Virus genome (UHGV): UHGV-1586850
From: a virus
Reading direction: 5' to 3' (one strand)
DNA length: 11,751 nucleotides
The translations under genes and the position numbers were made by a program. The notes beneath the pieces were generated by a model. That model made no database searches. It saw nothing but the letters and a program-made list of their open reading frames with translations, and was not told the DNA's origin. How positions within the stretch are numbered: the first letter of the stretch is position 1; each line of letters begins with the position of its first letter. This document shows, in pieces, positions 1 to 11,751 of the stretch.

Positions 1-1
1 T

Positions 2-406
2 GCCACCATTGCGGCACTGATGACAGTTTACGATCAGGAGCTGCTCATGAAGGAGCTACGTAAACTCACCGGTCAGCCAACAGAATGTTTTTCTGCCCCG
101 AAGTACGGGAAACAGGAACACATCCCGGTGAACACGCTCCCCGTTAACCAGCCTCCCCGGTTCTTCGACGAATACATTCTGACACCGGAAAATAAAGCTG
201 AGCACGAAGAGATCAAAGCGGCGTTGTTCCGGGAAATCAGGAAGATTGCTGAAATGCAACTGGGGGGCGGGCTGGACAGAGTGATGGCGAGAGGAGAATG
301 GGAGTCGCTGTTTGAAAGAGTTTCCCCGGAATTACTTCCCCTCGCACTGGCTATCGGGATTATGCAGACAGCGGATAAACCTCACTTACGTTCATTAAAC
401 ACGTAA
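2..406 (+). CDS. Hypothetical protein, 5'-partial (frame open to the left window edge)
   Basis: No in-frame stop between position 2 and the first ATG at 20, and no Shine-Dalgarno before ATG 20, so the gene probably starts upstream of the window. Stop TAA at 404-406. No motif recognised. Confidence 0.4.
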   Translation, partial: ATIAALMTVYDQELLMKELRKLTGQPTECFSAPKYGKQEHIPVNTLPVNQPPRFFDEYILTPENKAEHEEIKAALFREIRKIAEMQLGGGLDRVMARGEWESLFERVSPELLPLALAIGIMQTADKPHLRSLNT

Positions 407-783
407 CGCATAATCCGGGATACGCATTCAGCGATGACTGCATTTTCACCGGTTTTTACTGCATCCAGAAGTGACTCTTTAAATGGTGCGGGCCGGGGCT
501 GCAGAAGGGTCGGCGTGGCATTGAGCAGACGGAGCGTTTTTTCCGTGAGGACGACATCAGCCGCTCCCACAGCCAGCAACTGAGAGTAACGAATATAGCT
601 GTTATCCCGAAGCCATATCAGCGTATCAATAAAATACCGGCACTTTTTCTGGTCGTGATCAACCTGGTCCGGGATATCGAAAAAACCAGAATAAATCAAA
701 ACCTGAGGTGCCGGATGCGTGTTCAGTAATCGGCAGAATATTTTGCCGGTGAGTGCATAAAAATCATCATTTAAGGAGTGCAT
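382..783 (-). CDS. Hypothetical protein (about 133 aa)
   Basis: 134-codon ORF on the minus strand with tandem ATGs (complement of 781-786). GGGGA SD-like element (complement of 790-794) lies 6 nt before the second ATG. Convergent 25-bp overlap with the preceding ORF. No motif recognised. Confidence 0.4.
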   Translation of the reverse strand: MHSLNDDFYALTGKIFCRLLNTHPAPQVLIYSGFFDIPDQVDHDQKKCRYFIDTLIWLRDNSYIRYSQLLAVGAADVVLTEKTLRLLNATPTLLQPRPAPFKESLLDAVKTGENAVIAECVSRIMRYVFNERK

Positions 784-784
784 C

Positions 785-1000
785 ATGAATCCCCGATTAA
801 CGTTAACAGAACATCAGCGCCGTGCTGAAGCAGTGAACAATGTTCTGGAAGATATTATCCGGTTACATCGCGGAGAACTGAGTGTCTGTCGTGCCGCTTT
901 TCATTTTCAGGGAATACAAAAGCAGTTTGATACTTCTGTTTTTGCAGAAGGTATTACTTATGCCCTGGACCGGATAAGGTCAGAAAATCGCCCCGGATAA
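785..1000 (+). CDS. Hypothetical small protein (71 aa)
   Basis: Strong SD AAGGAG (773-778) 6 nt upstream of ATG 785. Product unrecognised. Confidence 0.45.
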   Translation: MNPRLTLTEHQRRAEAVNNVLEDIIRLHRGELSVCRAAFHFQGIQKQFDTSVFAEGITYALDRIRSENRPG

Positions 1001-1056
1001 TCCCTAAACCACATTAACAGAAATCCCACTATCCCTGCCGCATCATGAAAGAACGA

Positions 1057-1087
1057 CCAGCCCGGTGCTTCGGACCCACCGGGCTGG
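1057..1087. other. GC-rich stem-loop (11-bp perfect stem, 9-nt loop) without a T-tract
   Basis: CCAGCCCGGTG (1057-1067) pairs perfectly with CACCGGGCTGG (1077-1087). No U-run follows on either strand, so it is not a canonical intrinsic terminator; could be an RNA structural element or REP-like hairpin. Confidence 0.3.
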
Positions 1088-1131
1088 CCATCGTCCCACA
1101 GAAGTGGCTGTGAGCCGACCGAGGTTCAGTC

Positions 1132-1143
1132 AGTCTCGCGAGA
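1132..1143. promoter_or_regulatory. Perfect 12-bp palindrome GTCTCGCGAGAC about 50 bp upstream of the methyltransferase start; candidate operator
   Basis: The sequence equals its own reverse complement. It sits just upstream of the AT-rich putative promoter region (1160-1180) of the Dam-like gene. Confidence 0.25.
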
Positions 1144-1191
1144 CCAGACTAGCCTGCCATATTTTTAATAATTGTAAAAGGCTTACAGATT

Positions 1192-1956
1192 ATGAAAATG
1201 AAGACATTACCCATCGTTCCATGGATTGGTGGCAAACGTCGCCTGGCAAAACACATCCTGCCGCTGTTTCCGGCGCATGAATGTTATGTGGAGCCGTTTT
1301 GTGGGGCAGCAGCGCTCTATTTTCTTAAGACACCCGGCAAGATCGAAGTCATCAATGATATCAACGGTGAACTGGTGAATCTGTACCGGGTGGTAAAGCA
1401 TCACCTGGAAGAATTTGTCCGCCAGTTCAAATGGGCGCTGGTCAGCCGTCAGATCTACAAATGGCTGCAGATCACCCCGGAAGAAACACTGACGGATATC
1501 CAGCGTGCGGCACGGTTCTACTACCTTCAGAAGCAGGCGTTTGGCGGCAAGGTGGCAGAGCACAGCTTCGGTACCTCCACCACATCCCCGCCACGCTTCA
1601 ACCTGCTGCGTATTGAAGAAGAACTGTCAGCAGCACACCTGCGGCTTTCCAGAACAGTCATAGAACACATGGACTGGCAACAGTGCATTGAGCGTTATGA
1701 TCGTCCGCACACACTGTTCTACTGCGACCCACCGTACCTGGGTACGGAAGGCTATGGTGTGGATTTTCCTGAAGGGAACTACTCGCGGCTGGCAGAGCTG
1801 GCCCGGTGCATCAGAGGAAAAATGATAATTTCGGTGAACGATATCCCACAGATGCGCGAGGTGTTCACTGGACTGAACATACAGACAGTGAACATCAACT
1901 ACAGTCTGGCGGGGAAATCTACGCCGCGCCGTGAACTGGTAATCTGCAACTTCTGA
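1192..1956 (+). CDS. Dam-family (D12 class) N6-adenine DNA methyltransferase, apparently orphan
   Basis: N-terminal VPWIGGKRRL (the xWxGGK signature of Dam-like enzymes), EPFCGAAALYF AdoMet-binding motif I variant, and catalytic DPPY at residues 179-182 (nt 1726-1737) in the Dam-typical position. No restriction endonuclease candidate adjacent. Confidence 0.9.
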   Translation: MKMKTLPIVPWIGGKRRLAKHILPLFPAHECYVEPFCGAAALYFLKTPGKIEVINDINGELVNLYRVVKHHLEEFVRQFKWALVSRQIYKWLQITPEETLTDIQRAARFYYLQKQAFGGKVAEHSFGTSTTSPPRFNLLRIEEELSAAHLRLSRTVIEHMDWQQCIERYDRPHTLFYCDPPYLGTEGYGVDFPEGNYSRLAELARCIRGKMIISVNDIPQMREVFTGLNIQTVNINYSLAGKSTPRRELVICNF

Positions 1957-1963
1957 AACAAAA

Positions 1964-1986
1964 CCGGAAAGCACAATGCTTTCCGG
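1964..1986 (-). terminator. Intrinsic terminator for the leftward repressor transcript
   Basis: Stem CCGGAAAGC (1964-1972) / GCTTTCCGG (1978-1986), loop ACAAT. On the minus strand the hairpin is followed by TTTTGTTTC (complement of 1951-1963). On the plus strand no T-tract follows, so it is a weak terminator at best for the methyltransferase. Confidence 0.5.
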
Positions 1987-2072
1987 TAAACCAAACAACT
2001 TCCACTATGTCACTGGCGATGTTTTCTGAAAGCATCCAGATCAACCACCTGTCCTTTGTGTCCAGGTCAAAA

Positions 2073-2411
2073 TCAGCCTGCGAGTTTGCTTGGTTTGGGT
2101 TGAATGAAGACTTTGCCGACCTCAAGAATTGCCCTCCGTTGTTCGGGGCTCATTTCGTCGAATGCATCCATTAACTCTTTCTTTTCTTGTGACACATAAG
2201 GTGCAACAACAGGCTGACTCCGCACCCCAGTAACTACATACAAAATATCTACACCGATTTCTGATAGTGCAGATAACTGCACTGCAGTAGGAGAAGTGCG
2301 ATCTTTTTCCCAATCAATGAAAGTTCTCTTTGCCACACCTATAGCATCAGCCAACCCTTGCTGTGTAAGAGATAGACGCTCTCTTTCTTCTTTAATACGT
2401 AACCCGATCAT
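2073..2411 (-). CDS. XRE-family HTH transcriptional repressor (prophage c/CI-like), about 112 aa
   Basis: Helix-turn-helix LSLTQQGLADAIGVAKRTFIDWEKDRTSP near the N-terminus if translation starts at the ATG at 2411. Leftward orientation, divergent from the early operon. The longer ORF-track model (GTG at 2564) would overlap the ner-like gene by 53 bp and lacks an SD. Confidence 0.7.
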   Translation of the reverse strand: MIGLRIKEERERLSLTQQGLADAIGVAKRTFIDWEKDRTSPTAVQLSALSEIGVDILYVVTGVRSQPVVAPYVSQEKKELMDAFDEMSPEQRRAILEVGKVFIQPKPSKLAG

Positions 2412-2458
2412 GTGAGTTTTTCTGCACTCTTTAAGTTGACTGGTGAGGTAATCTGCAC
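2412..2458. promoter_or_regulatory. Two 16-bp operator-like repeats GTGAG-N4-TCTGCAC (2412-2427 and 2443-2458)
   Basis: Direct repeat with 31-bp centre-to-centre spacing. Each copy is an imperfect dyad (GTGAG versus the complement of CTGCAC, i.e. GTGCAG). Copy 2 lies in the -35/-10 spacer of the early promoter. Confidence 0.4.
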
Positions 2459-2464
2459 CATAAT
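2436..2464 (+). promoter_or_regulatory. Candidate early promoter (Pe-like): TTGACT-N17-CATAAT
   Basis: -35 TTGACT (2436-2441), 17-bp spacer, -10 CATAAT (2459-2464). About 45 bp upstream of the ner-like start, whose SD AAAGGAGA is at 2499-2506. Confidence 0.5.
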
Positions 2465-2511
2465 CTATCACACATAAGGCAAACATCATTGCATCAACAA
2501 AGGAGACAACG

Positions 2512-2700
2512 ATGACTGCAGAACAAGTCAAAGCTCTCTTCCGCCAGCGCGGGATCACTTTCACCCGCTGGGCAGAAGAAAACGGCTACAACCGCAATGA
2601 GGTATACCGCGTTCTCAATGGGCAGACCAAAGCCCGTTACGGTAAATCCCATGAAATCGCCGTGAAGTTGGGGCTGAAATCAACAGCTCAGGCAGCCTGA
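2512..2700 (+). CDS. ner: Ner-like small DNA-binding regulator (Ner/Nlp family)
   Basis: 62 aa. The pattern of conserved residues (GY, Y/F-R-hL, IAxxLGL) aligns with my recollection of Mu Ner. It is the first gene of the rightward operon, divergent from the repressor, with a good SD. Confidence 0.7.
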   Translation: MTAEQVKALFRQRGITFTRWAEENGYNRNEVYRVLNGQTKARYGKSHEIAVKLGLKSTAQAA

Positions 2701-2752
2701 AGATTTTGAGTCTTTGTAAAAGGTTATCACATATCGCAAAAGAGGTATGCAG

Positions 2753-3061
2753 ATGAGTAAGACGAATGTTTCAAGCTCCGGCAGTCGCATCCTCCGGGTA
2801 CTCAAAGCGCTGCGCGGTCATGCCCTGAACGGTATTTCCAACGGTGAACTGGCGGCAGCACTGCACGAGTCACCGGCAAACATCAACCGGGCACTCAACA
2901 CCCTCATTGAAGAAGGGTTGGCCCTGAAACTGGAAAACGGGCGTTTCGCGCCGGGCATCCAGTTACTGCAGATCGCTATGGCCCACAGTAACGAGATGGC
3001 ACGTGCACAGGATCGCATTAACGAAATCAACCAACGTGTCATTTCAGGTAGTCGTTTGTAA
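2753..3061 (+). CDS. Hypothetical winged-helix-like DNA-binding protein (about 102 aa)
   Basis: SD AGAGG (2741-2745) is 7 nt before ATG 2753; the ATG at 2747 is too close to the SD. The N-terminal region ILRVLKALRGHALNGISNGELAAAL resembles IclR/MarR-type wHTH. Confidence 0.6.
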   Translation: MSKTNVSSSGSRILRVLKALRGHALNGISNGELAAALHESPANINRALNTLIEEGLALKLENGRFAPGIQLLQIAMAHSNEMARAQDRINEINQRVISGSRL

Positions 3062-3071
3062 GGAGTAATAA

Positions 3072-3983
3072 ATGGGACGCACCAAATCACCGATTAACAC
3101 TGAACTGAACGCCGAGGTACCGCTGTCGGATGATCTCAATGTCAGTCTGAACGCCATGACACAGCATCGTATGGAGATCATGCAGCAGTTTGGCGATGGT
3201 CAGCCCTATGAGCGTGATCGCATAGTTCATGAGGCTCGGTTTTATATGGCACAGAGCGCTGAGGCCATGCTGGAAGCAGGTAAACGACTTATTATTCTCA
3301 AAGAAAATGAACCTCACGGGGACTTTGTTGGAATTGTAGAAGAACAACTTGGTCTGCATGTGCGCGCAGCACAACGAATGATGAAAGCATCTTTGAAATA
3401 CCTTTCACCAAAACTAGAGCCAAAAGCGACAACGTTGTCGCTTTTAGGTAAGGCAAAATTATTTGAACTTGTTGCTGAAGATGACGACGACCTTGCTGAA
3501 CTGGCCGACGGTGGCACAGTTGCCGGACTGACGCTTGACGATGTTGATCGCATGTCAGTACGTGAATTGCGTCAGGCCCTGCGCGAAGCGCGCGAAACCA
3601 ACGCAGCACAACAGCGCGTACTCGCCGACAAAAATGAAAAAATAGATTCACTCTCCACCAGACTGGAGAAGAAATCCCGTATTCAGCCGCCTGAGCCTGA
3701 TGAGGAGGTTAAGAAGCTGCGGGCGGAAGTAACAGCATTAGCGGTTGAGGCGGAATCTGCTATCGCCGTCCGACTGTCCAGCGCTTTTGAGACGCTGTGC
3801 GCATATTGTGCTGAAAACATGATTGATACCCCCAGAGACTTCATGGCAGGCCTGGTCTGTCAACTGGAAAGCACAGCGCGTAGCCTGCGCTCCACATTTG
3901 ACCTGCCGGACGAGCCAACAGGCAATGCAGCGCCTTCATGGCTGACTGAGCCGACGCCACAGATTAACGGGCTGGAGGCATAA
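3072..3983 (+). CDS. Hypothetical protein (303 aa) with an acidic stretch and predicted coiled-coil
   Basis: SD AGGAG (3061-3065) 6 nt before the ATG. Acidic run AEDDDDLAELADGG and a heptad-like charged helical region. Stop is 3 nt before the transposase start (translational coupling). Confidence 0.65.
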   Translation: MGRTKSPINTELNAEVPLSDDLNVSLNAMTQHRMEIMQQFGDGQPYERDRIVHEARFYMAQSAEAMLEAGKRLIILKENEPHGDFVGIVEEQLGLHVRAAQRMMKASLKYLSPKLEPKATTLSLLGKAKLFELVAEDDDDLAELADGGTVAGLTLDDVDRMSVRELRQALREARETNAAQQRVLADKNEKIDSLSTRLEKKSRIQPPEPDEEVKKLRAEVTALAVEAESAIAVRLSSAFETLCAYCAENMIDTPRDFMAGLVCQLESTARSLRSTFDLPDEPTGNAAPSWLTEPTPQINGLEA

Positions 3984-3986
3984 CCA

Positions 3987-5756
3987 ATGAATGCTGCCCT
4001 GACTGAACGACTGGTTTATGTCGCCCGCGCGGCACGTGACGCGGGGCATGGTAAACGCGGCGCAGTATACGACGCTGCCTGTGCTGAACTTGGCATGTCC
4101 CGCGCCACTCTGCTGCGCAGGCTGAAGGAGGTATCTGTGACTGATAAACGCAAAAAACGCGCCGATGCCGGGCGCAGCGCCCTGACCCGCGACGAAGCCG
4201 CGCTGATATCTGCCACACTGCGTGAGGCCACCCGCAAGAACGGTAAGCGTCTCTATTCCATCGCGGATGCAGTGGAAACCCTGCGGGCTAACGGCTTTAT
4301 ATCCGCAGGCAGAACAGATGAAACCACCGGTGAGTTTTTCCCGTTGTCCGAAGATGCCATCAGCCGAGCCCTGCGTAACTATGGCCTGCACCCGGAACAA
4401 CTGGATGCCCCTGCACCGCATACCGAAGTGGCCAGTCTGCACCCCAATCATGTCTGGCAGATTGACGCCTCACTCTGCACGCTTTACTACCTGAGCAATG
4501 GACATAAAGGGCTGCAGGTGATGGACAGCGCGAAATTCTACAAAAACAAGCCCGCTAACCTTGCCCGTATCGCCAGTGACCGCGTGTGGAGTTACGAGAT
4601 TACCGACCATGCCAGCGGCTGGATTTACGTTGAGTATGTGACGGGTGCGGAATCCGGTGAGAACCTGTGTTCTGTGCTTATCAACGCCATGCAGGAGCGT
4701 GGCGGCGCAGACGTGCTGCACGGCGTGCCAAAAATACTCTATCTCGACCCCGGCTCGGCAAACACCGCGGGTATGACGAAAAACATGTGCCGCTCACTGG
4801 GCATCGACCTGATAGCGCACAAGCCGCATAACGCCCGCGCCACCGGACAGGTGGAAAAGGCGCGTGACATTATCGAACGCAAGCTGGAGCCGGGTCTGAA
4901 GTTCCGGCCGGTTCACAGTCTGGAAGAACTCAACGCGCTGGCCGCGAAATGGCGCAGCCACTTTAACGCCACGGCTGTTCACAGCCGCCACGGTAAAACC
5001 CGCACGGATATCTGGCTGAAGATTACTGCTGAGCAGCTGAAAAAAGCGCCTTCCGTTGAGGTATGTCGTGAACTGGCTGTGGCGGCACCAGAACTCCGCA
5101 AAGTCACGCCAAAACTTCGTGTCTCGTTCCGGGGCACTGAATTTGACGTATCAACGGTACCGGGCGTACTGGTCGGTGAAAAACTGATGATTACCCGTAA
5201 CCCGTGGCGCAGCGATGTGGCACAGGTGGTTCTGACCGGTGAGGACGGCCACGAGACGTTCTTCCTGGTCGAAGAGGTCAGAAAGAACGAGTTTGGCTTT
5301 GCTGAAGGCGCGGCGGTATTTGGCGAAAGTTACAAAGCCCTGCCGGAAACCCCGGCGCAGATGGCGGCAAAAGAAACCGAAGCGCTGGTCACCGGTACAG
5401 ACAACGCCGCAGATGCAGCTGCCGCACGCAAGGCGAAGGCGCTGCCGTTCGGCGGGCGGCTTGACCCGTATAAACATATTGATGACGCCACACTTCCGGC
5501 CTGTATACCGAAGCGTGGTCAGGCCTCTGACGTACGCGGGCCGCGCACTGAACAACGTCCCATGACTTATGTGGAGGCCGCGAAAGCCCTGCGCGATAAG
5601 TTCAGCGCCAACGGCTTTACCTGGACGCCGGAACATTACCGCCAGTTAACGGCACAGTATCCGGACGGCGTACCGGAAGCCGCACTGGATGAAGTCATGG
5701 CCACGCTGACCACGCCGGCCCGCAGCAGCGTTATCAGTATTGTTAACGGCAACTGA
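3987..5756 (+). CDS. DDE transposase/integrase-fold protein (Mu A-like; DD(35)E catalytic core)
   Basis: 589 aa, SD GGAGG (3974-3978). Candidate catalytic triad D160 (HVWQIDAS, nt 4464-4466), D254 (ILYLDPGS) and E290 (ATGQVEKA), with the 35-residue D-to-E spacing typical of the rve/retroviral-integrase superfamily. HTH-like N-terminus. Followed directly by an ATPase gene, as in Mu A/B. Confidence 0.85.
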   Translation: MNAALTERLVYVARAARDAGHGKRGAVYDAACAELGMSRATLLRRLKEVSVTDKRKKRADAGRSALTRDEAALISATLREATRKNGKRLYSIADAVETLRANGFISAGRTDETTGEFFPLSEDAISRALRNYGLHPEQLDAPAPHTEVASLHPNHVWQIDASLCTLYYLSNGHKGLQVMDSAKFYKNKPANLARIASDRVWSYEITDHASGWIYVEYVTGAESGENLCSVLINAMQERGGADVLHGVPKILYLDPGSANTAGMTKNMCRSLGIDLIAHKPHNARATGQVEKARDIIERKLEPGLKFRPVHSLEELNALAAKWRSHFNATAVHSRHGKTRTDIWLKITAEQLKKAPSVEVCRELAVAAPELRKVTPKLRVSFRGTEFDVSTVPGVLVGEKLMITRNPWRSDVAQVVLTGEDGHETFFLVEEVRKNEFGFAEGAAVFGESYKALPETPAQMAAKETEALVTGTDNAADAAAARKAKALPFGGRLDPYKHIDDATLPACIPKRGQASDVRGPRTEQRPMTYVEAAKALRDKFSANGFTWTPEHYRQLTAQYPDGVPEAALDEVMATLTTPARSSVISIVNGN

Positions 5757-5766
5757 GGAGGGAAAC

Positions 5767-6933
5767 ATGCTGGTACTGAAGCAGCAACTGAAAGAGGCCC
5801 GTATTCCACAGGCGGTGGTGGCGAGAGCTGTCGATGTTTCTGAGGCCACGCTGGCCCAGATTGTGAATCATAACGCGTGGCCCCGCACCAGCCCCGGAGA
5901 AGTGCGCCGGCGTCTTGCGTCCTGGCTGGAAAGTCAGGGGATTGATACAACGAAGAGTTTTGATGCTGTACAGGGCGCGGCCACGCCCCGTACAGCGGGT
6001 ACCACAGATAAAACGAGCCTCAGTGAGGAAGAGAATATGTTACTCAAAAAACAGGTGTTATTTCCAGCAACCAAAAAAGCGTTTGGTCTTTTCCGTGACC
6101 CGTTCGCCGACGAAGCCATGCAGGGTTCTGATGATGTGTTCACCACCCCGGATATTCGCTACGTGCGTGAGGCGTTGTACCAGACAGCCCGTCATGGTGG
6201 GTTTATGGCCGTCATCGGTGAGTCCGGTGCGGGTAAATCCACGCTGCGCCGCGACCTGACTGAACGTATCAACCGCGAGAATGCGCCGGTAATTGTTATC
6301 GAGCCATACATCATCGCTATGGAAGACAACGATGTGAAAGGGAAAACCCTGAAGGCAGCAGCGATTGCCGAAGCCATTATCAGTACCATCGCACCACTGG
6401 AAAGCATCAGACGCAGTCAGGACGCCCGCTTTCGCCAGTTGCATCGCGTCCTGAAAGACAGCAGCCAGGCGGGGTTCAGCCACGTTCTGGTGATTGAGGA
6501 GGCCCACAGTCTGCCCATTCCGACACTGAAACACCTCAAACGCTTTTTTGAGCTGGAGTCCGGTTTCAAAAAACTGCTGTCCATCGTGCTGATTGGCCAG
6601 CCGGAACTGGCGACAAAACTGTCTGAACGCAATATGGAAGTCCGTGAAGTCGTTCAGCGCTGTGAGGTGGTCGAACTTCTGCCTCTGGACAATAACCTTG
6701 AAGAGTTTCTGACGTTCAAACTGCAACGGGCCGGTAAACAACTGACGGACATTATGGACGCCAGCGCAGTGGATGCCATACGTGCCCGCCTGAGCAATCC
6801 GGGAAGTCATCGTAAAAATATGGTCAGCCTGCTGTATCCGCTGGCCGTCAGTAACCTGGTAATAGCCGCCATGAATCTGGCCGCTGAAATCGGGGTTCCA
6901 CAGGTCAACGCTGACGTTGTCAAAGGGGTTTAA
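5767..6933 (+). CDS. AAA+ ATPase transposition helper (Mu B-like / ExeA-type)
   Basis: Walker A GESGAGKST and Walker B VLVIEEAH; N-terminal HTH-like segment. Start placed at ATG 5767 with SD GAGGAGGG (5754-5761), not the TTG at 5740 used by the ORF track. Confidence 0.8.
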   Translation: MLVLKQQLKEARIPQAVVARAVDVSEATLAQIVNHNAWPRTSPGEVRRRLASWLESQGIDTTKSFDAVQGAATPRTAGTTDKTSLSEEENMLLKKQVLFPATKKAFGLFRDPFADEAMQGSDDVFTTPDIRYVREALYQTARHGGFMAVIGESGAGKSTLRRDLTERINRENAPVIVIEPYIIAMEDNDVKGKTLKAAAIAEAIISTIAPLESIRRSQDARFRQLHRVLKDSSQAGFSHVLVIEEAHSLPIPTLKHLKRFFELESGFKKLLSIVLIGQPELATKLSERNMEVREVVQRCEVVELLPLDNNLEEFLTFKLQRAGKQLTDIMDASAVDAIRARLSNPGSHRKNMVSLLYPLAVSNLVIAAMNLAAEIGVPQVNADVVKGV

Positions 6934-6935
6934 TA

Positions 6936-7205
6936 ATGAAATCCACCACAGGTATCAACCAGCAAATCAGCAAAGTGCAGTCAGCCATTATGGCGCTTAA
7001 GGCGACGAACACGGATGTACAAAGCATCACCATCAGGGGTAACAAACCTGTCATCCGCGTTTCCCGGAGTGCGCATTGCATGCGCATGCTTGAGCAGGGA
7101 AAGGCCTGTTATCTGTATACCGGTCATGACCACAGGGGACATTTCCGTCAGGGCGTTTTCGAACTGCACGGCTGTCGCGTCGTGTGGCCGGAATCTTTGT
7201 GGTAA
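6936..7205 (+). CDS. Hypothetical early protein (89 aa)
   Basis: SD AAGGGG (6923-6928) 7 nt before the ATG; begins 2 nt after the B stop. Unrecognised. Confidence 0.55.
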   Translation: MKSTTGINQQISKVQSAIMALKATNTDVQSITIRGNKPVIRVSRSAHCMRMLEQGKACYLYTGHDHRGHFRQGVFELHGCRVVWPESLW

Positions 7206-7232
7206 TCAGCACAACAGGAGGAGTCATAAAAT

Positions 7233-7763
7233 ATGGCAAAAAGTACAAAAGGGGCAAAACGTATCAAAGCCGCAGCAGCACTCTGGGTGCCGGGGACACG
7301 CGAAGAGGTCATTGAGGGAATCAGACTGCTTGGTGACGCGCAACGTGAACTGGTCAGGGCTGAAACAGAAATGAATGACACCATTGGCGACATCACCGCA
7401 CGTTATGCCCCGCTCACCGAGAGCCTGAAAAAACGCATGGCCGAACTGCAGTCCGGTATTCAGACATGGTGTGAGGCACACCGTGATGAACTGACCGGCA
7501 ACGGGAAGGTGAAGTTCGCTAACCTCACCACCGGCGAGGTGCAGTGGCGAAACCGTCCGCCGTCAGTCAGTATCCGTGGGGCGGATAATGTTATTGAATT
7601 ACTGAGACGTCTGGGGCTTGAGCGCTTTATCCGTGTAAAGGAGGAAATAAATAAAGACGCCATCCTGAATGAAAAGGACGCCGTGAAAAATATTCCCGGT
7701 ATTACCATAAAAAGTGATATTGAGGATTTTTCAATAATTCCTTTTGAGCAGAATGTGCAGTAA
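7233..7763 (+). CDS. gam: Gam-like host-nuclease inhibitor (Mu Gam family, Ku-like DNA-end-binding protein)
   Basis: 176 aa. Conserved blocks matching my recollection of Mu Gam: AKRIKAAAA, ETEMND, WCEAHRDELT, RPPSVSIRG, GLERFIRVKEEINKDAIL, IEDFSIIPFEQ. Strong SD AGGAGGA (7216-7222). Confidence 0.9.
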   Translation: MAKSTKGAKRIKAAAALWVPGTREEVIEGIRLLGDAQRELVRAETEMNDTIGDITARYAPLTESLKKRMAELQSGIQTWCEAHRDELTGNGKVKFANLTTGEVQWRNRPPSVSIRGADNVIELLRRLGLERFIRVKEEINKDAILNEKDAVKNIPGITIKSDIEDFSIIPFEQNVQ

Positions 7764-7859
7764 AAACAGCATATAAGCTATTTAAAACAGCCTTTTCTTT
7801 TTTATTCCGGCATCAGCGCCGTGGGCTTCTGCACGCCGGAAACAGAGGAGAATTAAATC

Positions 7860-8054
7860 ATGATATTTAAATGTATTCAGTGCGAGAGGGATATAACAGC
7901 CCTGCGTTTTCACAGCGCCATCGCCGTGATGTCCGGTAAATACCACATCCCTGCGGTACGCGTCACCCTGGTCTGCCCGTACTGCAGCCAGCATTTTTCG
8001 GCAGACGTGCCCGTCATGGAATTCTCCCGCCCTGACAGGGAGGACTCGCAATGA
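7860..8054 (+). CDS. Small zinc-ribbon-like protein (64 aa)
   Basis: Two CxxC pairs (CIQC near the N-terminus, CPYC near residue 40). SD GAGGAG (7844-7849). Confidence 0.5.
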   Translation: MIFKCIQCERDITALRFHSAIAVMSGKYHIPAVRVTLVCPYCSQHFSADVPVMEFSRPDREDSQ

Positions 8055-8323
8055 TTACCCCACAGGAAGCACGACAGCGCACCCGAACCCTTGTTGAACA
8101 CTATGTCAACGAGTGTGAATGCCGCGACCTCACCGATGTGAAGCACGTCCTGACGGCGCTAATCAGCATGACCGCTCAGGCCATTGTGGCGACCAACGGA
8201 AAGGCGGCTGCCCTGCAGGTACTGGTGAACACACTCACCCACACGGCAGAGCACGATGTGCCGTACCGGATGGAAACCACTGCAGAAGGCGGCCTGAACA
8301 TCACCGTCGACCGGAAACACTGA
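8051..8323 (+). CDS. Hypothetical early protein (90 aa)
   Basis: ATGA start/stop overlap with the upstream gene (8051-8054). Unrecognised. Confidence 0.55.
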   Translation: MITPQEARQRTRTLVEHYVNECECRDLTDVKHVLTALISMTAQAIVATNGKAAALQVLVNTLTHTAEHDVPYRMETTAEGGLNITVDRKH

Positions 8324-8332
8324 GGGCGCGGC

Positions 8333-8638
8333 ATGACACGGAACACCGAACTCACCCGCACCGCCCTCTACCGTCTGGCCCTGCAGCGTTTCGGGCCGGA
8401 CGCACAGGCCCTGAAACTGACAGAAGAGGCCGCTGAACTGGCGGCCAGTGCCGCCCGCAACCTGAACGGACAGGGCAGCGAAAGTGACCTCGCGGCAGAG
8501 CTGGCAGACGTGGAAATCATGACAGAGCAGCTGCGCCTTCAGGGAATGGACCGGCTGATTGACTTCCACAAACAGAAAAAACTGGAACGCCTTGCCGCAC
8601 GGCTGGGCGTCATGTACACCGGAGATACTGAACAATGA
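8333..8638 (+). CDS. MazG-like all-alpha nucleotide pyrophosphohydrolase (putative)
   Basis: 101 aa with EExxE (TEEAAEL) followed by ExxD (AAELADVEI) acidic motifs in predicted helices, as in MazG/HisE-type NTP-PPases. SD GAGGG (8322-8326). Confidence 0.5.
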   Translation: MTRNTELTRTALYRLALQRFGPDAQALKLTEEAAELAASAARNLNGQGSESDLAAELADVEIMTEQLRLQGMDRLIDFHKQKKLERLAARLGVMYTGDTEQ

Positions 8639-9318
8639 CAGACCAGGATAAACACATTGAGAAACTGAAAAAGTTGCTGGCGCTGGCCGCATCCGGCAAC
8701 CCTCACGAGGCCGCTCTGGCACTGCGCCGTGCCCGTAAACTGATGGATGTTCACGGCATCACACATTCCGACATCGCCATGAGTGATATTGATGAAACCA
8801 TCAGTCACTACTGGCCGACAGGCAGCCTCCGTCCACCGCGCTACATGCTGGGCCTGATGAACATCATCCGCGAGGCATTTGGTGTTAACTCCATCATTCA
8901 CCCCGGCACATATCCGGGTGTGGGGTTCTACGGCAACCGGGAACGGGCTGCACTGGCTGCGTACACCTGGGAAGTGCTGGCCCGTCAGCTGAAAAAGGCG
9001 CGTCAGCAATATATCAGCGCACAGAACAAAAGAATAAAAACTGCCACCCGTACCAGCCGTGGTGACCAGTTTGCTGAAGGCTGGGTGCTGGCCGTTATCA
9101 GTGAAATACAGTCCTTCGCCCTGACCGATGACGAACGTGAACTGATGCAGCAGTGGCTGGAACATAAATACCCGCAGACGCAAACCACCAGGGCGCGTAA
9201 ACCGGGAAGAAGCCGCAATGGCGACGCCTCGCGCTATGCGGGGTTTCGTGAAGGGCAGAACGTCAGACTGCACCGCCCGGTCAGTGGGCAGGAACAACAG
9301 AAACTGGAGGCCAGATGA
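8635..9318 (+). CDS. Conserved phage early protein with DUF2786-like N-terminus (227 aa)
   Basis: ATGA overlap with the upstream gene. N-terminal KLKKLLALAASGNPHEAALALRRARKLM resembles the DUF2786 motif common in prophage early regions. Confidence 0.65.
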   Translation: MTDQDKHIEKLKKLLALAASGNPHEAALALRRARKLMDVHGITHSDIAMSDIDETISHYWPTGSLRPPRYMLGLMNIIREAFGVNSIIHPGTYPGVGFYGNRERAALAAYTWEVLARQLKKARQQYISAQNKRIKTATRTSRGDQFAEGWVLAVISEIQSFALTDDERELMQQWLEHKYPQTQTTRARKPGRSRNGDASRYAGFREGQNVRLHRPVSGQEQQKLEAR

Positions 9319-9545
9319 TTACGCTATCAGGTAAAAGCCGGAAATTAAAAGCCTGCCGAATATCTGCCAGATACCTTTTTGCCCGCGCCTTTTTTAAGAA
9401 CGTCAGGCCGGGGATCACAATTGGTGTTATTGCCGGACGCGAACAGGTTGAAAAATACATGTCAGGTGCATGGTGGAATAACGACCCTGTCATTGCTGCC
9501 CGTAATATTCATATCAGTTGGGGGGATATTCAGAATGACGGCTGA
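9315..9545 (+). CDS. Hypothetical small basic protein (76 aa)
   Basis: ATGA overlap with the upstream stop (9315-9318). Unrecognised. Confidence 0.45.
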   Translation: MITLSGKSRKLKACRISARYLFARAFFKNVRPGITIGVIAGREQVEKYMSGAWWNNDPVIAARNIHISWGDIQNDG

Positions 9546-9750
9546 ATCTGTTGTATGTGCCCTGTTCTGGTATTGTTTTGTCGGTTGGTGTACTGCTGAA
9601 CTGCACCGCCGTTCAGGGTTTTATTCACGTTACAGTGGTGCTGGCTACTGGATTAGCTGGTCGGTGATGTTCCTGTGCTGGCCTGTGGCGCTTCCTTTAT
9701 ATGTCGATTATATCGGTGGCGCAGGTAAAAGGAGCAACGATGATGACTAA
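9535..9750 (+). CDS. Small membrane protein (71 aa, two predicted TM helices)
   Basis: In-frame ATG at 9535 preceded by GGGGGGA (9520-9526). Hydrophobic segments VVCALFWYCFVGWC and WISWSVMFLCWPVALPLYV. The ORF-track start at 9379 is unsupported. Confidence 0.5.
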   Translation: MTAESVVCALFWYCFVGWCTAELHRRSGFYSRYSGAGYWISWSVMFLCWPVALPLYVDYIGGAGKRSNDDD

Positions 9751-10192
9751 ACAACGTCTTATCCAGCTCATTCATATTGCCCGTAATGAACTGGGTATGG
9801 ATGAAGACACCTACCGCCAGATGTTACAGGGGCTGACCGGTAAAGCCTCAACCAAAGGAATGGATACCACACAACTAAACTGCGTGCTGGAATCCATGAA
9901 AAGGAAAGGCTTTCGCGTTAAGCCTGCCGGAAAAGCCAGCTCCGGTTTACCGCTGGATAACCATCCGCAGTCCAGGAAAATCCGTGCGCTATGGCTTGAA
10001 ATGGCTGCTGCCGGCATTGTTCGTGACCGTTCAGAAAATGCATTAGCGAGGTGGATCAAGCGGGAAACGGGCATCAGCGCCCTGCGCTGGCTCAGTACTG
10101 AACAGGCAAGCAGTGTTATTGAGAAACTGAAGAAGTGGCAGCGCAGAGCTGCGGGAGTCAAACATGAGCGACCTGAATCAGTTTCGAAGTAA
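9740..10192 (+). CDS. gemA: GemA-like protein (Mu gp16 / DUF1018 family)
   Basis: SD AAAAGGAG (9727-9734) 5 nt before ATG 9740. N-terminal TKQRLIQLIHIARNELGMDEDTYRQML matches the gp16/GemA signature as I recall it. Sits immediately upstream of mor, as in Mu. Confidence 0.65.
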   Translation: MMTKQRLIQLIHIARNELGMDEDTYRQMLQGLTGKASTKGMDTTQLNCVLESMKRKGFRVKPAGKASSGLPLDNHPQSRKIRALWLEMAAAGIVRDRSENALARWIKRETGISALRWLSTEQASSVIEKLKKWQRRAAGVKHERPESVSK

Positions 10193-10562
10193 AGGGCCGG
10201 AACTCCTGGTGGAGCTGGCACAGCATACCTCTGAGACCGTTCGCGAGATTATTGATATTGAGCCCGCAATTGCCGACCAGATTGGTCAGGCCGTCGCGAA
10301 CCGAATGATGCAGGTCTGGGGCGGGCAAAACGTTTATTTCCCGATGGGCATGGTATGGAAGGTCAGTCAGCGCGACCGGGAAATCTTCAGGGAGTTTAAC
10401 GGACGCAACCACCACGAACTGGCCCGCAAGTTTGGTGTTTCGCTTCAGTGGGTCTACAGCGTGGTTAAGCGGGTCAGAAAAGAAGAACTGGATCGGATGC
10501 AGGGCAGGTTGTTTGATGAAGATCTGCCAGAGGAGACGAAAGACGTTAACAAATCCAGATAA
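10164..10562 (+). CDS. mor: Mor-like transcriptional activator (Mor/C family)
   Basis: 132 aa. C-terminal GGQNVYFPMG ... FREFNGRNHHELARKFGVSLQWVYSVVKR matches the conserved Mor/C HTH region (compare Mu Mor GGGQVYIP ... FNGRN ... YGV ... VYK). Last gene before the intrinsic terminator. Confidence 0.85.
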   Translation: MSDLNQFRSKGPELLVELAQHTSETVREIIDIEPAIADQIGQAVANRMMQVWGGQNVYFPMGMVWKVSQRDREIFREFNGRNHHELARKFGVSLQWVYSVVKRVRKEELDRMQGRLFDEDLPEETKDVNKSR

Positions 10563-10605
10563 TTCCTGCTTGTTAAAGTCCTTTCAAAAATCTCCTTATT
10601 GTATA

Positions 10606-10638
10606 AAAGCACGGTAGACCCCTTACCGTGCTTTTTTT
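10606..10638 (+). terminator. Rho-independent terminator ending the early operon
   Basis: Stem AAAGCACGGTA (10606-10616) / TACCGTGCTTT (10624-10634), 7-nt loop GACCCCT, then a run of T's to 10638. Confidence 0.8.
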
Positions 10639-10676
10639 ATGCTCTCTCTTTAGTATTCAGGATGCAGGGAGAAAAT

Positions 10677-11309
10677 ATGTTTGACGTTTCGTTGTTAAAT
10701 CTGCCATGGGCAACACTGGTGACCCTGACCAGTGGCTATATTGGGTATTTTATTGCGAATGTGGGACTGAAGGATCACCACAAGCCCATTGAGGTGACTT
10801 TTTCTTCGCTGATTTTTGGCCTGACAGCAATGATGGCTTACCAGGCTGTTATGTGGGCAGGTCTGAATGCCTGGCTGGCAACACCACCAGCACTTCTGTG
10901 TGCCGTTACATGCGGTGCGTGGTGGCGCAGGTACGGTCGCAAATGGATGTACAGATTACTGTGGAATAATGATATTTCATGGTCTGACGATACCAGCTCA
11001 GCATGGCAGGCAATGTTTGATCAAACAGGCTTCAGCGTTACCGAGGTCAGAGTGATTCTTCGCGATGGTTCCGGTATGATGTCACGGCTGCCAGGGAACT
11101 TTGAAGAGTGGCCTAACGGTCCGTTTACCCTGGGGAATAAAGGCGATATGGTTCTTTACGTCACGCACAGCAGCCCTTCAGGCAGTAACGAATGGGAAGA
11201 GTATAAAGGCGTGGTTGATAAGTACTGGGGAGCTCTGGCAACCTATATTCCAGCAGATCAGATTGCCAGAGTGGAGATCAGGCGCGTTCGTGCAACGAAC
11301 GATGAATGA
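10677..11309 (+). CDS. Integral membrane protein (210 aa; three N-terminal TM helices plus a soluble C-terminal domain of about 125 aa), function unknown
   Basis: SD AGGGAG (10665-10670) 6 nt before ATG 10677. Hydrophobic segments at about residues 9-31, 40-63 and 68-83. The ORF-track start at 10599 lies inside the terminator hairpin and is rejected. Confidence 0.7.
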   Translation: MFDVSLLNLPWATLVTLTSGYIGYFIANVGLKDHHKPIEVTFSSLIFGLTAMMAYQAVMWAGLNAWLATPPALLCAVTCGAWWRRYGRKWMYRLLWNNDISWSDDTSSAWQAMFDQTGFSVTEVRVILRDGSGMMSRLPGNFEEWPNGPFTLGNKGDMVLYVTHSSPSGSNEWEEYKGVVDKYWGALATYIPADQIARVEIRRVRATNDE

Positions 11310-11312
11310 TGT

Positions 11313-11474
11313 TTATTTTTTCCCTGGGGCAGGGGCTGCCGGCATAGTGGTTTTATTGGCAGAGGAAGACGATTCTCCTTTTCTACCGGAATCGCGCTCG
11401 AACGTCACGATGTGCTTGCTTTTGGGCTTTTCTGAGTAATCCAGGCTATCATGCTTATTGTTTTGAGTAGTCAT
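11313..11474 (-). CDS. Possible small hydrophilic ORF (53 aa), speculative
   Basis: ATG (complement of 11472-11474) preceded by AAGGA (complement of 11483-11487) at 8-nt spacing. Low-complexity product MTTQNNKHDSLDYSEKPKS... Below the ORF-track size cutoff. Confidence 0.2.
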   Translation of the reverse strand: MTTQNNKHDSLDYSEKPKSKHIVTFERDSGRKGESSSSANKTTMPAAPAPGKK

Positions 11475-11549
11475 TGGAATCATCCTTTTTGTTGCGGGTC
11501 ATGTTTCAGCAAACTCGATTCTAAGTTGCCAGGAAGGATGATTTCAATG
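11472..11549. repeat. 16-bp inverted repeat (15/16 match) with 46-bp spacer
   Basis: CATTGGAATCATCCTT (11472-11487) versus the reverse complement of AAGGATGATTTCAATG (11534-11549). Each arm read outward contains AAGGA-N8-ATG, an SD plus start codon. Confidence 0.45.
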
Positions 11550-11629
11550 CCCGACTTATCTATCGTATAGCGGAAAAGAATTTCAGTTCTGTTCACCAGA
11601 ACCCATGTTAACCCACTCCAATTCGTTAT

Positions 11630-11751
11630 TTATCTCACGGATCCCCCTTCATTTATCTCATGTCTGATCATGTAATCCAGCAGATGATGCTCCGCAAGAA
11701 TCACAATGTGCTGGACTTCAGTCACCACATGCATATTAATGCCGCGATCGT
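11630..11751 (-). CDS. Possible 3' end of a minus-strand gene entering from the right window edge, speculative
   Basis: 39 sense codons open to the window edge, ending at TAA (complement of 11630-11632). Too short to assess. Confidence 0.2.

Follow-up and report, generated by a model that had tools for sequence, protein, structure and literature searches.

Transposable phages land in random host genes, and genes close to their ends are therefore constantly exposed to foreign transcription. For insertion sequences, protection against such transcription is textbook knowledge. IS10 and IS50 use fold-back logic for their transposase genes, an inhibition reportedly described by Davis, Simons and Kleckner in 1985 and by Schulz and Reznikoff in 1991. 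In phage Mu, the Com protein opens the structure that inhibits translation of mom, and the Mor and C sites are compact dyads centred near -43, beside a poor -35 element. At the left end of IS200, a terminator acts against impinging transcription, and a stem-loop in the tnpA 5′UTR sequesters the Shine-Dalgarno (SD) sequence (PMC4513863). The transposable Burkholderia phage KS10 carries two putative transposase-binding direct repeats at each of its ends (PMC2628397). Our literature search found no description of protection against foreign transcription for cargo genes at the ends of Mu-like phages.

Here, we analyse a window of 11,751 nucleotides from the virus genome UHGV-1586850, and above all its final part from position 11310 onward, where one arm of an inverted repeat covers the ribosome-binding site of a small gene. 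The best reading of this repeat, one we consider evenly balanced between right and wrong, is that fold-back inhibition of the IS10/IS50 kind protects a small cargo gene.

The end of a BcepMu-type prophage in yjjP

The original prediction treated 11310-11751 as a single low-coding region and offered an element or recombination boundary as one of its possible identities. The boundary was borne out, and it divides the region: positions 11310-11670 are, with essential certainty, the last 361 bp of a transposable prophage of the BcepMu (Mu-like) type, whereas the last 81 bases proved to be host DNA. Alignment with related prophages and with the host locus, the check that had been proposed, placed the phage-host junction at 11670|11671, the last base of the element being 11670. 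Of 5426 complete E. coli genomes, 118 contain window positions 10600-11670, at unrelated loci (flanking genes gspL, sfaA, tnaB, fadM, rstB, ybhJ, xylR, EamA and others), and the alignments of all 118 prophage-bearing genomes share one sharp stop, at 11670. The phage part is thus not plain host intergenic sequence, and the inverted repeat that it contains is conserved among relatives. The features at this end of the window are as follows.

11628-11637, no strand: inner subterminal repeat ATTTATCTCA, a probable transposase-binding site; GATAAAT core, in register with its counterpart at the other prophage end
11651-11660: outer subterminal repeat ATTTATCTCA, a probable transposase-binding site, 23 bp from the inner copy and 10 bp from the terminus
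11665-11670, no strand: prophage terminus ...TGATCA; matches to more than 100 E. coli genomes, at different loci, stop at 11670
11671-11676, no strand: TGTAAT, the expected copy of a 6-bp target-site duplication, as judged from two other insertions
11671-11751, minus strand: host gene yjjP, nucleotides 218-298 of 771 (gene strand and coordinates from L069)

The 81 bases at 11671-11751 belong to the host core gene yjjP and have a 100% match in 5422 of the 5426 E. coli genomes. In the strain of origin yjjP is interrupted by the prophage; this exact insertion is carried by none of the 5426 complete genomes of the E. coli collection. Transcription of yjjP, a minus-strand gene, is directed from its promoter into the prophage end, and the small 53-codon gene described below has this orientation too. 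The same prophage was seen to be flanked by 6-bp target duplications at two independent insertions (ACTTCC in sfaA and GTGATT in ybhJ).

The prophage is 38 kb long and its gene layout is that of Bcepmuvirus. Among its genes, as annotated in RefSeq for L001 and L002, are those for Gam, GemA, Mor and a DDE transposase together with its ATPase partner. In the window, the transposase is encoded at 3987-5756; Mor matches PF08765 with an E value of 1e-43. Beyond the central regulatory region of the element are lysis, head and tail genes, the latter two of Mu type, with a Gin-like invertase at the far end. Positions 1-10522 of the window are 95% identical to Escherichia phage PhiKM, a phage assigned to Bcepmuvirus, and the match stops at 10522, just upstream of the terminator that follows mor.

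Both copies of the 10-bp direct repeat ATTTATCTCA that the original prediction had noticed are present and exact, at 11628-11637 and 11651-11660. By itself the pair is only mildly unusual, an exact 10-mer being repeated within 60 nt in 45 of 2000 dinucleotide-preserving shuffles of 11310-11751; it gains its meaning from comparison with the other end of the prophage. Read inward, the end in the window (TGATCAGACATGAGATAAATGAAGGGGGATCCGTGAGATAAAT) and the Gin end (TGATGCGCCGCGCGATAAATGCACTCTATCTTGTGCGATAAAT) both start with TGAT and carry GATAAAT cores at positions 14-20 and 37-43, in the same register. The arrangement of two cores 23 bp apart, inverted between the ends, is kept in PhiKM, in Phi06_2974 B and in all relatives retrieved. 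Since the same pair recurs, inverted and in the same register, at the other end, the direct repeats are likely to be binding sites of the transposase. Other repeats (a 71% direct repeat of 31 nt, matches between phage and yjjP DNA, and inverted repeats of 9-14 nt) were treated as chance. The analysis fixes the prophage boundary to the base, and also the probable transposase sites and the disruption of yjjP.

A two-gene cargo module after mor

In PhiKM and Phi06_2974 B, mor is separated from the terminus by only ~195 bp: the segment from 10523 to about 11590 is missing, and what these phages share with the prophage end is confined to the terminal ~43-80 bp. In the prophage, the corresponding stretch holds the following features.

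10605-10635, plus strand: strong intrinsic terminator after mor, a 13-bp stem followed by a T run, which closes the early operon
10677-11309, plus strand: cargo gene 1, encoding a 210-aa membrane protein (phrog_12870; distant DUF6338)
11313-11474, minus strand, ATG at 11474: cargo gene 2, encoding a 53-aa hydrophilic protein; convergent with gene 1, the stop codons being 3 bp apart

The 53-codon leftward open reading frame (ORF) of the original prediction was recovered on the minus strand at 11313-11474, and it is a real, conserved gene. In RefSeq genomes it is annotated as WP_001571575.1, and its product matches phrog_15726 (E 1e-41), a PHROGs family of unknown function. In the 17 relatives checked, which extend to alpha-proteobacteria, an ORF of 46-57 aa lies at this place in the same orientation. 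Enterobacterial versions of the protein have the N-terminal motif M..NN..D..DYSE.PK in common, and in most of them the C-terminus is Pro-rich and basic. The claim that the region holds no ORF of at least 61 codons does not hold in a mechanical sense, because a 112-codon ORF (11101-11439, plus strand) extends into it; this ORF is out of frame with the membrane gene and has no support as a gene.

The cargo pair follows GemA-Mor in the same order in Salmonella, Klebsiella, Citrobacter, Serratia, Proteus, Symbiopectobacterium and metagenomes, and the convergent pair itself is also found in alpha-proteobacteria. For either protein, Pfam and PADLOC gave no match, and the only families matched were PHROGs families of unknown function. 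A search of 5.8 billion proteins returned only close, unnamed homologues of the small protein, and a literature search on the accessions and PHROG identifiers of the cargo proteins found nothing. These results flag a conserved two-gene cargo module, found in 118/5426 complete genomes of E. coli as well as in several other Enterobacterales.

The inverted repeat and the selection on its arms

The arms of the inverted repeat, 11472-11487 (CATTGGAATCATCCTT) and 11534-11549 (AAGGATGATTTCAATG), are complementary at 15 of 16 positions across a 46-nt spacer, just as originally described. None of 2000 dinucleotide-preserving shuffles of 11310-11751 produced an inverted repeat that matched at 15/16 or better across 100 nt or less. 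The proposed folding of the repeat segment was carried out for both strands, and in each the minimum-free-energy fold pairs arm 1 with arm 2. Three features overlap here.

11472-11487, minus strand: arm 1, AAGGAUGAUUCCAAUG, consisting of the Shine-Dalgarno sequence, an 8-nt spacer and the start codon of the 53-aa gene
11518-11547, minus strand: sigma-70-type promoter assigned to the 53-aa gene, 10/12 consensus match
11534-11549, minus strand: arm 2, CAUUGAAAUCAUCCUU, anti-SD plus anti-AUG, overlapping the -35 hexamer and the promoter spacer

The promoter consists of a -35 hexamer TTGAAA (11547-11542), which matches the consensus at 5 of 6 positions, an 18-bp spacer and a -10 hexamer TAGAAT (11523-11518), and it predicts a transcription start near 11511, within the loop of the inverted repeat. 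TTGAAA-(17-18)-TAGAAT is kept in all 21 variants that we aligned, including those in which the stem has decayed, with a 5′UTR that varies from 29 to 40 nt. A real promoter would be expected to behave in this way, with hexamers and spacing that persist while the length of the 5′UTR changes. In 20 of the 21 variants no sigma-70-like promoter was found between the terminus and arm 2, and there was no conserved second promoter. The sole candidate for a terminator between the terminus and the small gene is a terminator-like hairpin at 11603-11585 (minus strand). This hairpin, of 7 pairs including 3 G-C, is weak, with a stem that L004 and other variants do not conserve; we rejected it. An Rfam 15 scan of 11200-11751 on both strands, with E values up to 1, returned no RNA family, which leaves the suggested sRNA locus unsupported as a member of a known family.

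In the original prediction, the arms were mirror-image modules, each with an SD and an ATG. This description applies to the left arm, which is the ribosome-binding site and start of the conserved 53-codon gene, and fails for the right arm, which carries no start. The 7-codon rightward ORF (MPDLSIV, 11547-11570) does exist in the window, yet it is not conserved: it reads MG-stop in L029 and MMSMVV-stop in L035, and its ATG is gone in L076, L041 and L067. We therefore rejected it as a coding start.

To follow the arms through evolution, we used an alignment of 21 distinct variants from E. coli, Salmonella, Klebsiella, Citrobacter, Serratia, Symbiopectobacterium and metagenomes, together with a 12-sequence version. 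Across the 21 variants, 94% of stem cells are paired and 6 of the 16 stem pairs are altered on both sides. Neither the observed covariation score nor the percentage paired was reached by any of 500 column shuffles, and sliding one arm by 1-3 columns lowered pairing to 36-56%. Pair 6/11, for instance, is G.T in the window, A-T in L029 and L112, T-A in L035 and C-G in L066, and pair 9/8 is either T-A or C-G among the variants. L066 has an entirely different SD (GAGGAAAG), which its arm 2 matches, and in L041 CCTT/AAGG has become CCTCT/AGAGG. Positions 1-5 of arm 2 track the SD although they lie in the promoter spacer, where sigma-70 needs no particular sequence. The positions that vary among relatives are spacer positions, altered in step on both arms. 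Such in-step change indicates that complementarity, not a pair of coding starts, has been selected; selection on the complementarity of the arms is well supported by the alignment. Moreover, the stem is kept with compensatory changes where the neighbouring protein is only 56-70% identical.

The stem is, nevertheless, dispensable, as it has decayed in three lineages with an intact promoter (L041, L067 and L071) and is absent in the window's form from the L025 and L027 lineages, where a homologous small gene is present. The retention of the gene where the stem has decayed or is missing would suit a chance or relic repeat without function, in which case the region would be merely a prophage end. 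Such a repeat should hardly show compensatory changes in relatives whose neighbouring protein has diverged this far, and none of the 2000 shuffles produced one; we regard this explanation as very improbable.

The co-variation also bears on the proposal of a binding site for a dimeric regulator, possibly a Mor-dependent middle promoter. A regulator that controls the small-gene promoter might recognise the arms as two half-sites in DNA, be they an operator pair, looping sites or the site of a Mor-type activator: the arms flank and overlap that promoter, and their centres are 62 bp apart, close to six helical turns. A protein site should, however, retain its recognition bases, whereas here the variable positions change together, and the arms of L066 are unrelated in sequence and still complementary; arm 1, furthermore, is fully accounted for as a ribosome-binding site. 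A Mor- or C-dependent promoter of the Mu kind was rejected, because the conserved -35 is good at 5/6 positions, as against the poor -35 in Mu, and because one arm lies downstream of the predicted start. With arms that co-vary at a distance of 62 bp beside a good -35, the regulator-site claim was not sustained, and two half-sites are the least probable of the explanations that we weighed.

Proposed fold-back inhibition and its alternatives

Fold-back is the best-fitting explanation of the stem, with an effect on translation that is predicted from the arrangement of arms, promoter and start codon. A transcript from the gene's own promoter would start inside the loop and, lacking arm 2, would be translatable. 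RNA entering from outside the prophage end would carry both arms, and could fold back and hide the ribosome-binding site of the small gene. In the yjjP lysogen, this would be read-through RNA from the yjjP promoter; more generally, the stem would shield a cargo gene located at the end of the element from transcription of whichever host gene the element lands in. As no sigma-70-like promoter separates the terminus from arm 2 in 20/21 variants, long RNAs should come from the host. For the 16-nt block from SD to AUG, the median of the predicted mean unpaired probability was 0.09 in read-through RNA and 0.51 in own-start RNA, both figures being thermodynamic predictions only.

Two hallmarks of fold-back inhibition were found at this locus: the downstream arm is the SD and start codon of an inward gene beside the end of the element, and the complementarity of the arms has been selected. 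A third, native mRNA that lacks the upstream arm, is a prediction from the conserved promoter, which would put the gene's own start near 11511, between the upstream arm and the gene. The protected gene does not encode a transposase: its product is the 53-aa hydrophilic protein of phrog_15726, and this counts against fold-back, as do the loss of the stem in some lineages that keep the promoter and a stem that is more complete and stronger on the plus strand than on the minus strand.

This strand bias was quantified in the 17 well-aligned variants, in which pairing reaches 97.8% of cells on the plus strand versus 90.8% on the minus strand; of the non-Watson-Crick cells, 20 are G.T on the plus strand and 1 is A.C. 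The fold of the repeat in the window reaches -40 kcal/mol on the plus strand (z -2.4; 5 of 200 shuffles folded as well) and -29 kcal/mol on the minus strand (z -1.4), and in every variant the plus-strand fold is the better one. Most of the G.T excess is to be expected from the composition of arm 1: A or C occupies six of its eight free spacer positions, where a transition yields a plus-strand wobble pair. Counted as independent events, G.T versus A.C is ~7 versus 1, not 20 versus 1. Nearly all pairs at the AUG and SD are of the Watson-Crick kind, and hence equally good on the minus strand, the non-canonical pairs sitting in the SD-AUG spacer. The plus-strand bias is thus mostly explained by arm composition and shared ancestry, and is not decisive.

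The bias is nonetheless what a hairpin acting in plus-strand RNA would leave behind. In that case, the stem would function in the 3′ untranslated tail of the membrane-gene/early-operon transcript, which would run antisense across the small gene and leave through the prophage end. A stem of 16-20 bp in this tail could protect the 3′ end from exonucleases, form an RNase III site, or mask the anti-RBS stretch of the antisense RNA and thereby tune convergent or antisense control of the small gene. The plus-strand fold is the stronger one and stretches to 20 bp with G.U pairs, its non-Watson-Crick cells are nearly all G.T, and no conserved intrinsic terminator lies between the membrane-gene stop and the repeat, so that plus-strand RNA should reach it. 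The composition of arm 1, and AUG and SD pairs that serve either strand, take away much of this evidence. A hairpin that stabilises a 3′ end has no need of a ~45-nt loop, and the coincidence of the arms with the SD-to-AUG block and the -35 region would go unexplained. The stem is not itself an intrinsic terminator, since no variant has a U tract after it. On this balance we consider a plus-strand hairpin unlikely, while taking it seriously.

A stem that occludes both SD and AUG might alternatively serve as a regulated translational switch on a long transcript made by the phage from a non-sigma-70 promoter near the terminus, for example an activator-dependent one, with a phage or host factor that opens the stem. 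Mor is encoded 750 bp away, and mom, the last gene at the right end of Mu, is established to use such a hairpin. No promoter-like site was found between the terminus and arm 2 in 20/21 variants, however, there is no Com-like zinc-finger ORF ahead of the small gene, and the conserved promoter inside the repeat would bypass the switch. We judge it quite improbable.

More broadly, the stem could be part of an undescribed, self-insulated two-gene cargo system at the ends of BcepMu-type phages, a proposal that we regard as distinctly doubtful. Its parts would be a membrane protein that bears an Sm-like barrel in the cytoplasm and, encoded convergently, a disordered partner of 50 aa, and the relative dosage of the two proteins would be set by convergent transcription and a bifunctional hairpin on both strands. 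On inward read-through RNA the hairpin would hide the ribosome-binding site, and on outward antisense RNA it would form the cap. If such a system exists, it might act in superinfection exclusion or defence, with an activity independent of the landing site.

For a 16-bp stem, the comparative signal is unusually clean, combining a promoter in 21/21 variants with compensatory changes in the arms. Should fold-back inhibition fail as an explanation, the locus would be an ordinary prophage end with a conserved hairpin.

Among known systems, the element as a whole resembles the BcepMu group in its DDE transposase/ATPase, Gam, GemA and Mor, its many unrelated insertion sites with a short target duplication, its TG...CA termini with repeated subterminal motifs inverted between the ends, and an early operon directed toward the prophage end in the window. 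The target duplication is 6 bp in the prophage and 5 bp in Mu, and the prophage differs from PhiKM and Phi06_2974 B by ~1.1 kb of cargo between mor and the terminal repeats, which those two lack. As in Mu com-mom, a hairpin would occlude the translation start of the gene nearest the end of a Mu-type phage; mom, however, points outward and needs Com, whereas the small gene points inward, has no Com-like ORF and has a promoter that bypasses the stem. IS200 likewise has an inverted repeat near the element end, a stem that hides the SD and outside transcription as the issue at hand. Its stem lies in the native 5′UTR and represses its own mRNA, whereas the predicted start here falls in the loop, and a conserved intrinsic terminator between terminus and gene is absent here. 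An equivalent of the antisense RNA-OUT of IS10 was not found at the prophage end. The likeness to IS10 and IS50 lies in an inward gene at the element end and in an arm that is upstream of its own (here predicted) start and complementary to the ribosome-binding site and AUG, an arrangement in which the inhibitory stem could form only in RNA initiated outside the element. The differences are that the upstream arm overlaps the -35 hexamer and that the stem would protect a 53-aa cargo protein, not a transposase, in a 38-kb phage. Fold-back inhibition at this locus would therefore place a regulatory principle that is already known in a setting new to it, that of a Mu-like phage with a cargo gene at its end.

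Arrangement and transcription of the cargo genes

The membrane gene and the convergent 53-codon small gene, which together form the cargo module of this prophage, are bounded by the following features of the window:

10605-10635, immediately 3′ of mor: strong intrinsic terminator, consisting of a 13-bp stem and a T run behind it
11307-11309, plus strand: stop codon TGA of the membrane gene
Complement of 11313-11315: stop codon TAA of the convergent small gene

Given that the terminator directly follows mor, expression of the membrane gene would depend either on read-through or on an unrecognised promoter within 10636-10676. At its other end, the two stop codons are separated by 3 bp (11307-11315) with no terminator between them; hence, the membrane gene and small gene transcripts must overlap as antisense partners.

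Variation of the cargo slot among relatives

Judged by sequence comparison, the segment from mor to the terminal repeats (10523-11590) is a swappable cargo slot. Most of the window is held by 494 E. coli genomes, and its cargo version is present in only 118. In PhiKM-type phages (PhiKM, L005 1450-1800, minus strand; Phi06_2974 B, L006), approximately 195 bp occupy the slot between mor and the terminal repeats, and three relatives (L032, L042 and L043) have lost the small gene while keeping the membrane gene and a remnant of the second inverted-repeat arm, AAGATGATTTCAAT. A homologous small gene (MPDKN...VTFES...) was found in two lineages (L025 and L027 from IMG/VR; L062-L064; L073). The region upstream of the small gene is different in the L025/L027-type lineages, lacking both the TAGAAT promoter and the long-range stem; in L025, the Shine-Dalgarno sequence is instead paired within a short local hairpin.

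Subterminal box and a fragment of the prophage end

Almost every BcepMu-type end, with or without the cargo module, has a conserved subterminal box, TTTCACATACTGAAAAnnAATTACA, located approximately 95-125 bp from the terminus in PhiKM, KP12 and the relatives L035, L038, L044, L066 and L067. The window contains a diverged form, CGTATAGCGGAAAAGAATTTCAG, at 11565-11590. The box could serve the transposase as a third site, bind a host factor or act as a packaging signal.

A 145-bp fragment of the prophage end (11517-11661) was also observed in approximately 200 E. coli records, with 109 places on plasmids. It is approximately 88-90% identical to the window and comprises the second arm, the promoter region (with CAGAAT as the −10 element) and both terminal repeats, without the last 9 bp. 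No annotated feature lies beneath the fragment in the E. coli records carrying it; one copy (L003 4001-4144, plasmid NZ_CP019909.1) adjoins a LysR-family gene and IS remnants. The fragment appears to be the end of a related phage, truncated long ago and since spread with plasmid DNA.

Insertion site and comparison with Mu

In this strain, the host gene yjjP (part of it at 11671-11751), encoding a ThrE-family exporter, is 771 nucleotides long and is broken after nucleotide 298. A search of 5426 complete E. coli genomes found none with the prophage at the same site. The target-site duplication of the prophage is 6 bp, namely ACTTCC (L002 1351-1356 and 39687-39698) and GTGATT (L118 4115-4121 and L119 68-73), whereas that of Mu is 5 bp. 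At the far prophage end (L002 37334-39618), a Gin-like recombinase adjoins inverted fragments of tail-fibre and tail-fibre-assembly genes, an arrangement that suggests a host-range switch resembling the G segment of Mu.
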